Shown: in pieces, positions 1,985 to 7,932 of the stretch
Numbering within the stretch: the stretch's first letter is position 1
Layout of the letters: the number at the start of each line of letters is the position of its first letter
Virus record (IMG/VR): IMGVR_UViG_2703718674_000018
Direction: 5' to 3' (one strand)
From: a virus
Taxonomy: Duplodnaviria > Heunggongvirae > Uroviricota > Caudoviricetes
Length of the DNA: 10,661 bases
The notes under the pieces: model-generated
Told to the model about the DNA's origin: nothing
Databases searched by the model: none
Seen by the model: only the letters and a program-made list of their open reading frames with translations
Position numbers and translations under genes: made by a program

Positions 1985-2794
1985 TTATTCCTCTGAATTA
2001 TCGATTACACTGTATTCCCCGGTTAATACAGAGGAATCTGCAGGATCGATTGTCAGTGGTTCCTTTTCATCCATTGATACTGCACGCTGGATCTCAATTG
2101 ATACGGGCAGATATTTGAACAGGCGACGAATAGCCGTTTTCTTTGCCATTTCTTCCCAGTGAGTTACCCACGGCCCGTTATTACCAGCTTTACTCAGGCT
2201 GCGCACCAGCTCAATCTGTTTGCGCGTCATAACTTCAAACTGAGTACCTCCGTCTTTCAGTCTTGCGACAGCATAGACGTGGGTAACCGGGGCATCTTCG
2301 TTTTCTCCCGGGCGGTGTATTAACTTTTCATCAAGGCCAAATTCGAAGCTAAACTCGTCACCTTCACGGACAACACGGGCTGACAGGCTGGCGATTTGAC
2401 CAGAACGGCGAGCCAGATCAATCATGCCGCGATAGCCAATGATTAGCTGAACGTTCTTTTTACCGCTCTTTTCGTTTTTATTACCAAAAGGCAGTAAATA
2501 TGCATGACCGAGGGCGCTACCTGGCTCAAGTCCGAGCTGTGAACACTGTACGATGGCACCGATAAAACTCGTCGAGTCACAGTTTCTTAGTTCCGGTACT
2601 TTACGGATTTCTGTTGTAGCAATGCGGATCATGCGTTCCGCTGTCATGTGACGTGGCAGAGCTGCTGCCAGTTGCGCTTTCATTGCCGGGCTGTTAATCA
2701 CGCACAGCACATCCTTATCGTTAACTGCTGCTGGTGCACGGTTTCCCTGAGTTTTTTGCAGATCGGCTTTTGCGATAGGTGGTTGCTTAATCAT
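1985..2794 (-). CDS. recT: RecT single-strand annealing recombinase, 269 aa
   Basis: Translation [24 protein letters not shown]...SVIDNSEE matches my recollection of E. coli RecT almost residue for residue. ATG at 2794 preceded by AAGGAGT; alternative ATGs at 2800 and 2851 lack suitable SD spacing. Start overlaps the recE stop (2787-2789) by 8 nt. Confidence 0.9.
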
Positions 2795-5462
2795 TTGCAT
2801 ACTCCTTAGCCCAGCGGGGCAGTGATAACGTCTTAATAGCTGGCCATTCATCGGTATTTAGGCAGTCAGCCAGGGTCCGCAGATTGCGGTGATATTCCTG
2901 CTGGCCTGCCAGTTTTGCTTCTTCGCCCATCATGAAAATCTCAACCGGATAACGTCCGCATTCAACAGTTGTGCTGGCAACCAGAAAAACGAAAGTTGGC
3001 TGCACGCCAAACTGTGCTTCATAACCGTCACTGTAGAATGCATCCTGAACGTGATAGCGGTAGTCGTAATAAGCCGTTTTGAATCGTTGAATATCCGCCG
3101 TAGTTTTCACGTCCATGATCCAGTGAAATTCAGGAATAATTTTGTCCGGACGGCACCGACACAAAATTCCTGTTTCCGGATCTTCCCAGTAAATTGATGA
3201 TTCAGCGTGTCCGGCGCTTTCAACAAGCCATTGCCCCAGCGGCAAAGCCATAACGCTTTGATACATGAGTTCAATTTTCCGACCTTCTTCCGCAGTGATA
3301 ACCGTTTTTCCTGTGCTTGCGCATTCCATCAGAAACGCTTTCTCTTCTTCTTTTCCGGCGTTTGTACGGCGGTTAAATTCAGGTGCTACGATAAAGCGGT
3401 TACTGAATTCTTCCGGTTCAAGTACCCGGAAGTGGAAAGCGGTTCCTAAATCGAGCGTTTTTGTCTTTGTAGTGTCCACGGGAGCATCTTTACGCCACAA
3501 ATACAGTGCCGGAGTATCAGCAATGTCATCGAGCTGAGACTTACTGACACCGGGACCTGCGTGGTAATTCTCATTCGAAATTCCGTAATAAATACCTGGC
3601 TCTATGTCTTCTACGATTACGGGATCTGCGACTTCGCCAGTTTCATCACTGCAATCGCGATGCGGATCGCTGCCAGCATTCTCATTGTGCGGATGTTCAG
3701 CGCCTTCCATTTCCTCCAGACCTTTTTCCTGATATTCATTCTGATTTTCTTCATTAAAGGTTTTCTGATACGTTGCGTCGCCCATTACCGCGCCACAGTC
3801 AGGACAGTTGCCGCCGCCAGCCTTACCGCAGGCGGTGCAAACTTTCTCCGTTTCCTGTTGTTGCACTACTGGCTCAGGCTGTTTCGTTTCTGGCTCGTTT
3901 TGTTGCGTATTTGGGTCGTTCTGTTCCGTTTCTGGCTGATTCTGGTATATAGAGTCGCGGGTCTGGATCCCCTTAACCCATTTCGGATCATTCGGGTCGC
4001 TAATCCCTTCAACAAATTCTCCGCGAGAGGCAGCCAGTAATTTGTCTGCATCGACAGGATTTTTGGGCGGAATGTTTTTCCGGGCTTCATGGAGTTCTGC
4101 CCGCAGTTTCTGATATTTCGCATCAACAGAATTTACCTGTGACTGAGCATCCAGCGGCTGCGTGTCCTGATGATGTTCAGTTGCATCCGGTTCCACTGTT
4201 TCAGCCGTTGCCTGTTCATCTGCCATTGCGCAAGATGGTTGCGGTTTTTCTTCATCATCCTGTTTTTCTTCTTCTGTTACACGCTGCGGCATCGGGGCAG
4301 AGGAACGACCGCAGGCAATATCCACGATTTCTGGATCAGGGTTGGCATGATCAGTTTCAGTCAGTACTTTGTTCAGATATTCAGTGACGTGTGCGGGGAT
4401 AACCTCGATCCCAATTGGTGCTTCTTTTACGGACGCAACCACGATGGCGCGGGAATAATCCAGCCCGCCAGGCATGGTGATGAATTTGTCGCGGAAAACA
4501 GAAAAGGGTGGTTTATTTTCAGCGATAATTTCCTCGACACGTTTAGCGTGTGCCGGATGAAGGTTATAAATGTCCACGTCCATTGAACGAGCCAGTACGC
4601 CAGTGGCTACGTCGCGCGCCAGTGACGTCAGATCGTGAACGAAACCTTCGCCGCGATCGGTGAGGTTCCCGCCGCCAGCATTAGCGCCGGAAGCCGTACG
4701 CGTGATGCGTGAAACACGATTTCCTTTTCGCCATTCTTTTGTCAGAAGACCGCGATCAATGTGTTCGGTATCCAGCCAGGCTGAAATGAAATTCTTAAAT
4801 TCATAGGGCTGATGTTTTTTCGTGATAGAGAACACTGCCTTAATTGCATCAGTCAGGCGGAGCAGGGCGGCATTATCCAGAGTTGTCGGTTCTGCCATGC
4901 TGCGTATGGCCAACAGCAGATTCTGGACATAGCTGTTTTCCTGATCCATCTCAAGAGCAGTAATGTGTTTGCGTTGTTCACGGGTGGCATGATGCAGGTA
5001 TTTCCGATCCCCGGCTGCATACGTAAAAATGTGCAGAAGACGCTGTGTGAACCGCAAAGTGGCTACAGAGACTTCGCAATCCTGGCAATCCTCGTGGGCG
5101 TCTGCCTGCGCGTTTTCTTCCTGGCCTCCCGCCAGTTCTTTGGTTTCTTGAGCATTATCCTGGTGGTGAACGTCGTCTGGCGCTGCTCCCGGTTTTAGTT
5201 CCCAGGTCATGGAGTCTTTGCTGAGTTGATAGCGTTCACTCCAGGTAAAATCGATCTCACCTTCAGGGGGAAGGTCATTAACGACAGGAAAATTCGTGGC
5301 AACAGGTTTAAAATAGCTGCTCAGTTTTTTACCTGACTTAACGAGCAGGTAGTCCAGAGTGGCACAGGTCGATTCAAAATCGTCGCTTGCCCACAGGACG
5401 ACGTCAGGTTCACCGGATGATTTTTTCGCTTTCCGTAACAGGAAGAGTGGTTTTGTGCTCAT
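2787..5462 (-). CDS. recE: RecE exonuclease VIII, 891 aa; C-terminal nuclease domain, long N-terminal region with acidic low complexity and a Cys4 motif
   Basis: Single 891-aa ORF starting [39 protein letters not shown]..., which I recognise as the RecE N-terminus. Immediately upstream of, and translationally coupled to, recT (the RecET pair). ATG at 5462..5460. Confidence 0.9.
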
Positions 5463-5570
5463 TGTTTTTTAACCTCAACTCAGATTAAAATTCGTTTTGT
5501 TCAGTGAATGATCTTGCCGGATACACACTGTTCATAGCCTGCGTATGGCGCAGGCTATTTCTTTCAGATT

Positions 5571-5840
5571 TCACCGCCTAATTTCATTGCAATCAGAGTT
5601 GCCAGAAATTCGGCTTTTTTTTCTGCGGGCAGATTCTTTCCTATGTGCACCAGACACATTTTTTTTAACACCATCGTTAAGTGTTTTAACGTTGCCTGAT
5701 GGACCGTCGATATCAACCACAGTGAATGGGGTTTCTTTATTTTCTGTCTTAATCACGTAGCCAATACGCTTTCCTTCCAGGGTAACTTCGTGAACAATGT
5801 CATCAGTAGTAACAACAGTGGCTTCATAACTGGTAATCAT
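5571..5840 (-). CDS. racC: RacC-like small protein; frame as sequenced gives 89 aa with an Arg/Ser-rich tail (possible frameshift at A8 run)
   Basis: ATG at 5840 preceded by TAAGGAG (5-nt spacer). N-terminal 60 aa (MITSYEATVVTTDDIVHEV...GPSGNVKTLNDGVKK) look like RacC as I remember it. After the A8 run (plus-strand T8 at 5659-5666) the frame encodes NVSGAHRKESARRKKSRISGNSDCNEIRR; see findings. Confidence 0.6.
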   Translation of the reverse strand: MITSYEATVVTTDDIVHEVTLEGKRIGYVIKTENKETPFTVVDIDGPSGNVKTLNDGVKKNVSGAHRKESARRKKSRISGNSDCNEIRR

Positions 5841-5914
5841 GTTTTTCTCCTTAATTAAGGTTGAGCGAATCCCTGCCATTGCTGGCATAAATTCAGTTTC
5901 GGATAGTCAGTTAA

Positions 5915-6867: not shown

Positions 6868-7047
6868 GTTGACCTCATTTCCCCTTAACGCCGGGTGGCG
6901 GAACGTTTTATCTACTGCGCTTTGTATCAATCAACAACTGCCGTCATGTTCGTATGCCTCAGGCTGGCTACTTAGCCCTGTTCAGTGGCTGGATAACTCG
7001 AGGTATTGTCCTGCCGTTCTCTGGTGGGGCGTTGTTTGGATATGCTT

Positions 7048-7089
7048 ATTAAACACAATGCGTTTTCTTGTATCAACACGAAATGTGTT
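7048..7089 (-). promoter_or_regulatory. Candidate leftward early promoter (PL-like) with overlapping operator-like palindromes
   Basis: Minus strand reads TTGATA (plus 7071-7076), a 17-nt spacer, then TTTAAT (plus 7048-7053), close to the sigma70 consensus TTGACA-N17-TATAAT. Palindrome AACAC-GAAAT-GTGTT (7075-7089) overlaps the -35; imperfect AACAC-AATGC-GTTTT (7052-7066) overlaps the -10. Confidence 0.4.
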
Positions 7090-7118
7090 TTGTGGTGGGT
7101 GTCATATGATGATGGTAC

Positions 7119-7143
7119 AAAAAAAGCCCGCTGATAGCGGGCT
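7119..7143 (-). terminator. Rho-independent terminator downstream of the repressor gene
   Basis: Plus strand AAAAAAA-GCCCGC-TGATA-GCGGGC-T; on the minus strand this is a 7-bp GC-rich stem (AGCCCGC/GCGGGCU) with 5-nt loop followed by UUUUUUU, about 30 nt after the repressor stop (7174). Confidence 0.65.
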
Positions 7144-7173
7144 GATTGGCATATTACTGTGATAGCAAGATCA

Positions 7174-7593
7174 TTACTCCGGTGGGGGATTATCTTTAAG
7201 CCTGCCTCTCAAATATTTTTCTACATACTCATCGATTTCTTTTAGCCGGACTTCAAATAGCTCAATCATTCGTTGTTGTTCTGAGCCCGGTAGCTGGTTA
7301 AACAACTCAAGAAGTTTTCGTTGGGATTCATTTAACCACAATTCAGAAGATTCCTGTTCTCCAAAGAGGAGCTCAGGAGGAGATATGCCAAGTGCCTTTC
7401 CCAATACGACAGCGTCATGCACTCCAACATTTCTGCTACCCGCCTCATAGTTACCTATACGCGATTGCGTCCATCCGCAGATTTCAGCAAGTTTTCCTTG
7501 AGATAAACCAAGCTTCTGCCTGCGCTCTTTAAGACGCATTGCAATTTTGTCATTGAGCCTACTAGCGGCAATTTTTTCGTTTTCTTTTTCCAT
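7174..7593 (-). CDS. Prophage repressor, XRE-family HTH, 139 aa (cI/RacR analogue; no LexA-type cleavage motif recognised)
   Basis: ATG at 7593 preceded by AAGGA. HTH region LKERRQKLGLSQGKLAEICGWTQSRIGNYEAGSRNVGVHDAVVLGKALGISPPELL. Divergent from the Cro-like gene across a 96-bp operator region and followed by a terminator. Confidence 0.8.
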   Translation of the reverse strand: MEKENEKIAASRLNDKIAMRLKERRQKLGLSQGKLAEICGWTQSRIGNYEAGSRNVGVHDAVVLGKALGISPPELLFGEQESSELWLNESQRKLLELFNQLPGSEQQRMIELFEVRLKEIDEYVEKYLRGRLKDNPPPE

Positions 7594-7689
7594 TGCATCC
7601 TTGTATCACGAATCGTGATTTACACAAAACACAAAACATCTTGACCGTATAACACAAGATGTGTTTAAAATTGTCATCGGAGGTTTTCA
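7594..7689. promoter_or_regulatory. Divergent promoter/operator region (OR/PR-PRM analogue) between repressor and cro-like gene
   Basis: Two 15-bp palindromes of the same family: ATCAC-GAATC-GTGAT (7605-7619) and AACAC-AAGAT-GTGTT (7651-7665), plus ACAAAAC direct repeats (7623-7637). Plus-strand -35 TTGACC (7641-7646) with -10 TTTAAA/TAAAAT (7664-7671). GGAGG SD at 7679-7683 ahead of ATG 7690. Confidence 0.6.
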
Positions 7690-7932
7690 ATGAACAAAAT
7701 TTCAACATATCGAAAACAGCTTGGGCTGTCTCAAAGACAACTTGCTGTTCAGTTAGGGTGGATACAAAGCCGACTGGCAAATTACGAAGCAAATTTTCGT
7801 ACCCCTGGACTAGAGGAGTGCAGAAAAATTGTTTCTACCCTTAATCGGCTTGGCGCTCATTGTGGACTTGACGATGTATTCCCCCCAGACGGTAAGCATA
7901 GCGAAAACAGCATAGGAGCGGTTGATTCATGA
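7690..7932 (+). CDS. Cro-like HTH transcriptional regulator, 80 aa (first gene of the rightward operon)
   Basis: ATG 7690 with GGAGG SD; HTH segment YRKQLGLSQRQLAVQLGWIQSRLANYE. Divergent from the repressor; stop overlaps the next start (ATGA at 7929-7932). Confidence 0.8.
   Translation: MNKISTYRKQLGLSQRQLAVQLGWIQSRLANYEANFRTPGLEECRKIVSTLNRLGAHCGLDDVFPPDGKHSENSIGAVDS

Follow-up and report, generated by a model that had tools for sequence, protein, structure and literature searches.

[quoted passage not shown] It encodes a protein of 91 aa (WP_000632297.1). K-12 RacC was found to be the strongest blocker of RcaT, the toxin of retron-Sen2, and it also blocks the RcaT of retron-Eco9 (bioRxiv 10.1101/2020.06.22.160242). 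In the same work, RecE was reported to trigger the retron by degrading msDNA, and racC-recE was termed a linked blocker-trigger pair (Bobonis et al., bioRxiv 10.1101/2020.06.22.160242).

The window is a stretch of 10,661 nucleotides from a virus of the Caudoviricetes (IMG/VR record IMGVR_UViG_2703718674_000018). It possesses a putative racC pseudogene on the minus strand (5564..5840), which spans 277 nt, start codon and authentic stop included, compared with 276 nt in intact racC. This span aligns with K-12 racC and is 100% identical to locus E3172_RS13600 of NZ_CP038412.1. The start codon, ATG, is at 5840-5838. A Shine-Dalgarno sequence, AAGGAG (5852-5847, minus strand), is located 6 nt upstream of it and is the same in K-12. 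Translation of 5571-5840 on the minus strand gives MITSYEATVVTTDDIVHEVTLEGKRIGYVIKTENKETPFTVVDIDGPSGNVKTLNDGVKK followed by NVSGAHRKESARRKKSRISGNSDCNEIRR, for a total of 89 aa. The first 60 codons (5661..5840, minus strand; MITSYEATVV...NDGVKK) are in frame and equal the N-terminus of the intact protein P0025. The remaining 29 codons (5571..5660, minus strand) form an Arg/Ser-rich tail that intact homologues do not have, and they end at a TGA stop (5571-5573), 7 nt ahead of the normal stop. Thus, the single uninterrupted ORF of about 91 codons that is expected of racC is not found in the window.

The frame changes at the first of two poly-A runs. This run is an A8 (5659..5666, minus strand; T8 on the plus strand), and it is the site of a one-base insertion into an ancestral A7. 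The authentic C-terminal frame, identified from the list of ORFs, consists of 31 codons, MCLVHIGKNLPAEKKAEFLATLIAMKLGGEI, and a stop at 5564-5566 (5564..5659, minus strand). It can be reached from the ATG solely by a +1 shift. The alternative frame containing it is an ORF at 5564..5716 (minus strand) that terminates in ...KKMCLVHIGKNLPAEKKAEFLATLIAMKLGGEI at that same stop. An earlier note on this DNA had proposed that one A fewer in the first run would give a 91-aa RacC, and this was reproduced. The repaired protein matches the intact allele P0025 exactly, an allele that is present on at least 1000 contigs. The 91 aa that the note had given as the length of RacC agrees with the K-12 protein, and its reading of the start site, the 60 RacC-like residues and the out-of-frame tail also held. 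The second poly-A run, which it had placed 44 nt downstream, is an A8 (5615..5622, minus strand) that encodes E-K-K in the RacC frame. This is the wild-type length, and K-12 likewise has A8 there. Two other ORFs were considered and rejected. An upstream start at 5888 would give an ORF of 105 aa, but its product is absent from the recorded genes and the Shine-Dalgarno sequence favours the ATG at 5840. An antisense ORF of 71 aa (5545..5760, plus strand) was taken as spurious.

The racC DNA of the window is 92.5% identical to that of K-12, and in both the gene lies between ydaE and recE. The N-terminal 60 aa of K-12 RacC are homologous to the window in frame, whereas the C-terminal 31 aa are homologous in the +1 frame. 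Pairwise alignment places the difference in the first run. K-12 reads GGTGTC-AAAAAAA-TG and the window reads GGTGTT-AAAAAAAA-TG, with one extra A. The C-terminal 31 aa are therefore not translated from the start codon of the window. A closer comparison is provided by two genomes, O55:H7 CB9615 and strain SJ7, both of which possess an A7 and a single ORF of 91 aa (WP_001452559.1). Save for the extra A, they are identical to the window from position -80 to about nt 262 of racC. They differ at residue 88, which is AAA (Lys) in CB9615 and SJ7 and GGC (Gly) in the window, and in the sequence 3' of the gene. Alignment to K-12 and other Rac-like prophages, which the earlier note had suggested as a check, thus gave A7 in the first run for all three of these genomes.

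A 401-nt query around racC matched 1868 of 5426 complete E. coli genomes. The sole 100% match was to E. coli O157:H7/H- strain 493/89 (NZ_CP038412.1). Its Rac-like prophage has the gene order kil-ydaE-[racC]-recE-recT-ralR-rcbA-xisR-intR, and the portion from kil to recT, which includes racC in its early-left operon position between ydaE and recE, has the same order in K-12. Judged by sequence, the window agrees with the E. coli O157:H- lineage that ferments sorbitol (493/89, H 2687). PGAP labels racC of 493/89 as a pseudogene ('hypothetical protein, frameshifted'), so the frameshift is already flagged in RefSeq. The sequencing chemistry of CP038412 was not found in the literature; PMC7175801 mentions 493/89 but not this accession.

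Directly downstream of racC, the window contains recE, which encodes exodeoxyribonuclease VIII (2787..5462, minus strand). This ORF is intact at 891 aa (PGAP WP_000105108.1), and recT is also intact. A perfect 10-bp hairpin, ATAGCCTGCG-CCATA-CGCAGGCTAT, is present just 3' of the racC stop (5534-5558, minus strand). Its 5-nt loop, CCATA, is the reverse complement of the loop found in K-12, SJ7, and Z869 (TATGG), so that the loop is flipped on an unchanged stem. CB9615, 2013C-4974, and OkiPb01713 have a different sequence at this site. The hairpin is not a canonical intrinsic terminator, because no T-run follows it. BLAST alignments to the prophages of CB9615, 2013C-4974, and OkiPb01713 break at about 4257-5454 (minus strand), in the 5' third of recE, and their flanks are 91-99% identical. 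Between these prophages, the N-terminal 400 or so codons of recE are thus highly divergent or mosaic. The immunity region (about 6950-7900; 3469-4227 in L001) encodes an HTH repressor/cro-like pair, WP_000410105.1 and WP_001033914.1, where K-12 and CB9615 have racR/ydaS. This looks like a mosaic immunity swap, because the flanking genes are common to both.

The ancestral state of the first run was explored through exact-match counts in complete genomes for four versions of one 95-nt haplotype spanning both runs. The intact version, with A7 in the first run and A8 in the second, was found in 45 genomes, including O55:H7 CB9615 and DEC5A. The version with A8 in both runs was found in three, 493/89, 2013C-4974, and OkiPb01713. 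Two genomes have A7 followed by A9, and two have A7 followed by A7. In IMG/VR, the first run is A8 on 6 contigs and A7 on at least 120. Overall, a single racC ORF with A7 accounts for roughly 87-95% of copies; apart from K-12 and CB9615, about 90% of copies have A7. These counts identify A7 as the ancestral state of the first run and A8 as a minority state.

Other shifted alleles show much the same picture. An abundant or detectable intact counterpart was identified for four of the five. Intact P0026 is on 999 contigs and its shifted form, P0002, is on 30. The corresponding counts are 872 and 17 for P0027 and P0003, 139 and 6 for P0028 and P0005, and 5 and 1 for P0029 and P0009. The repaired form of the shifted allele P0006 was absent from the assembly collection. 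A8 is present on at least three backgrounds, namely the 3' end found in the window, the CB9615-type 3' end of 2013C-4974 and OkiPb01713, and a different allele in O157:H7 Z869. The change from A7 to A8 therefore arose more than once or was moved by recombination. In the OkiPb01713 prophage (L014, 1-753 and 2597-2766; racC A8), ydaE is also frameshifted and ydaT is truncated beside an insertion of the IS3 family. These lesions are further decay of the same operon.

Additional frameshifts in racC were sampled among complete genomes with a match length unequal to 400 nt. The second run is A9 in JNEC-KY180 and F1 E4, A7 in RM11911, and A10 in strain 361, and PGAP labels each of these genes (loci L007, L008, L010, and L011) as 'frameshifted'. 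Variants with A7, A9, and A10 in the second run are also present in IMG/VR contigs. Neighbouring genes were scored as a control on the same 126 IMG/VR contigs, among the matches listed. RacC is broken in 22 of 124 copies, or in 16 of 118 without the contigs that had been selected for A8. Kil is broken in 1 of 112, YdaE in 1 of 116, RecT in 3 of 72, and DUF1391 in 3 of 94. Among the IMG/VR contigs listed, breakage is thus about 13% in racC versus about 1% in the adjacent small genes, a roughly tenfold difference, in frequencies that mix real mutations with technical errors, because some protein variants (such as P0061 and P0073) resemble homopolymer compression in noisy assemblies. Across E. 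coli, the A7 and A8 tracts of racC are hot spots at which indels recur. A high frequency of breakage would be expected from two long mononucleotide runs under weak selection. Three proteins of 91 aa, P0008, P0068, and P0072, appear to result from compensated double shifts, with one base gained in the first run and one lost in the second. In these, the last 16 or so RacC residues are restored and about 15 residues in between are scrambled. They come mostly from Logan assemblies.

P0034, a protein with 96% identity to the repaired RacC, was modelled with AlphaFold2 on an alignment of 20 sequences. The model (mean pLDDT 80.5, pTM 0.67) has five beta-strands between residues 5 and 51, followed by two helices (54-68 and 72-88). 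The 60 codons that remain in frame would encode the predicted five-stranded beta-sheet and the beginning of helix 1. From residue 61 onward, the shift is predicted to scramble helix 2 completely and helix 1 for the most part. A Pfam search returned DUF2969 alone, below threshold (15.7 bits against a cut-off of 25), and no family was assigned. A fold search of the PDB with the model gave no match at E <= 0.001, the best being beta-sheet fragments of OspA (E of about 0.3). Matches in BFVD were weak (E >= 0.006) and were to uncharacterised small phage proteins. Both fold searches were functionally uninformative. With the predicted C-terminal helices disrupted and the last 31 residues, which are conserved, gone, RacC activity has most likely been lost as well. 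The RacC of the window is thus probably inactive, as both the model and the conservation of the C-terminal frame suggest. The N-terminal beta-sheet domain might retain some activity.

The earlier note had left three causes open for the broken frame, a sequencing error, a genuine inactivating indel, and slippage-dependent expression. Data from 454, PacBio, and Nanopore often contain miscalled homopolymers, and an error in sequencing or assembly would mean that the real racC is intact. Some of the assemblies that support A8 came from chemistries prone to homopolymer errors, and many odd Logan variants of racC, such as the 90-aa P0061 and P0073, resemble homopolymer compression. The older draft of 493-89 and the closed genome also differ at the second run. 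The draft product is 82 aa (P0004, EFX11754.1; cf. P0007), which implies an A9 in place of the A8 found in the closed genome and in the window, and this disagreement is most likely a homopolymer error in the draft. At the first run, however, the draft has the shifted tail as well. In the assembly collection, the exact 89-aa product is indexed in 102 blocks, and 44 contigs carry it (NCBI, ENA, and Logan data); O157:H- str. H 2687 and DEC3F are among the E. coli sources named. The racC DNA of three independent NCBI assemblies equals that of the window, with the same A8. When 6.27 kb is compared, one of the three shows 100% identity to the window and the other two share nine true SNPs along the prophage. 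The IMG/VR contigs L017 and L020 have 7 and 12 mismatches to the window and, like L003 and L004, retain A8 despite 7-12 real SNPs elsewhere in the prophage. No A7 version of the window's exact 401-nt allele was found among the 5426 complete genomes. Because A8 is common to copies that differ by SNPs, it is inherited and predates the divergence of these prophage copies. On the concordance between assemblies, the extra A is an inherited mutation. A sequencing error is effectively excluded for the O157:H- lineage on the same agreement, and of the explanations weighed here it is given the least credence. The genuine inactivating indel is the cause that these data favour.

An inherited A8 could still be compatible with a working gene if expression depended on slippage. 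RNA polymerase omitting one A or adding two, or a +1 shift of the ribosome on AAA-AAA-A, would restore a biologically meaningful share of full-length RacC from a gene that is tuned down. A8 is at the lower edge of the lengths prone to slippage, and some bacterial IS elements use A8 (PMC1088944). Judging from the codons, the Lys-tRNA on AAA-AAA could re-pair perfectly in the +1 frame. Transcriptional rescue of racC in the window would need the polymerase to delete one A. For the E. coli enzyme, however, no rescue of the deletion type could be detected on the poly(A) tracts tested, and A-runs shorter than eight gave no slippage (PMC6260861). A programmed +1 ribosomal frameshift was considered and rejected for three reasons: AAT, the codon in the A site, is not a stop, rare, or slow; the arrangement lacks conservation; and no Shine-Dalgarno-like sequence was seen that would make a convincing stimulator. 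Frame restoration at a low level, by slippage of the polymerase or the ribosome, may still occur. The RacC-frame C-terminus is retained in homologues down to 63% identity, and the Arg/Ser tail is confined to shifted alleles. The runs themselves are interrupted in divergent homologues, where GVKK is replaced by GVKA, GVRA, or GVTK and EKK by EER. Because the RacC-frame C-terminus persists in divergent homologues whose A-runs are interrupted, nothing suggests programmed slippage. Slippage-dependent expression is thus unsupported and appears improbable, although slightly less so than the other alternatives weighed here. The earlier note had also named a pattern that would speak against a break, orthologues with A8 throughout and a conserved tail; it was looked for and was not found. 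A different alternative is that racC is a phase-variable contingency locus, with tracts that switch the anti-retron blocker ON and OFF and with the window caught in a reversible OFF phase. One-base indels do recur at both tracts in several allelic backgrounds, the excess of broken racC (16 of 118 IMG/VR copies against about one in 110 for kil and ydaE) would fit, and apparent compensated double shifts (P0008, P0068, and P0072) exist. Nevertheless, the A8 is stable across diverged prophage copies and no A7 revertant was seen in that allele, every copy seen being A8. Classical contingency tracts are longer than the two in racC, and distant homologues do not preserve the racC tracts. A cryptic-prophage gene with two mutable runs would also show a high frequency of breakage under relaxed selection. 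A reversible phase is therefore considered very unlikely. Equally unlikely is the broader proposal of a mutational ON/OFF switch, formed by the two tracts, for the blocker upstream of recE, with breakage arising from selection and not from neutral decay. If such a switch were real, its driver could possibly be host-level selection that disarms the counter-defence of the prophage while keeping recET.

A genuine, vertically inherited +1 insertion in a Rac-like prophage, with a product that is most likely non-functional, is very probably the explanation for the racC frameshift of the window. The earlier note's proposal, that a single additional A in the first poly-A run breaks racC, is thus supported. 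Several features point to a pseudogene. The indel lies in a mononucleotide run, intact relatives are otherwise identical, and independent assemblies agree. In addition, a conserved and structurally integral part of the protein is predicted to be lost. The frameshift is, in short, ordinary gene decay at a slippery run. Replication slippage most likely lengthened the A7 to A8. Ribosomes starting at the ATG (5840) would then make 60 residues of RacC and 29 unrelated basic residues before an early stop. The conserved 31-residue C-terminus would be lost, which would leave the product most likely non-functional and racC a pseudogene. Expression of recE-recT would be little affected. Little polarity on these genes is expected, given that translation in the shifted frame would run nearly to the normal stop. 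The trigger would thus be kept and the blocker lost.

It appears that the prophage probably keeps the retron trigger, RecE, without the blocker, RacC. Losing the blocker would have consequences only in hosts with a retron of the RcaT type, and only while the early operon of the prophage is expressed. The 'frameshifted' flag on racC in RefSeq is borne out as a true feature of the sorbitol-fermenting O157:H- lineage and not an assembly error. Because the A7 and A8 runs are mutational hot spots, the intactness of racC should be checked in each strain before RacC function is assumed.

The racC of the window can be placed beside two kinds of described genes. The other racC copies that PGAP labels as 'frameshifted' (JNEC-KY180, F1 E4, Z869, RM11911, 361, 2013C-4974, and OkiPb01713) belong to the same class, as each has an indel of one or two bases in a poly-A run. 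They differ from the window in the tract affected or in the allelic background, and Z869 has its A8 on a distinct allele. Genes with programmed slippage, such as dnaX of T. thermophilus (A9), mxiE of Shigella, and IS elements (A8/A9), resemble the window in that a homopolymeric A run parts two frames. Those genes keep the run and the two-frame layout among their orthologues (PMC1088944), whereas the layout found in racC is a minority arrangement that is specific to its lineage.
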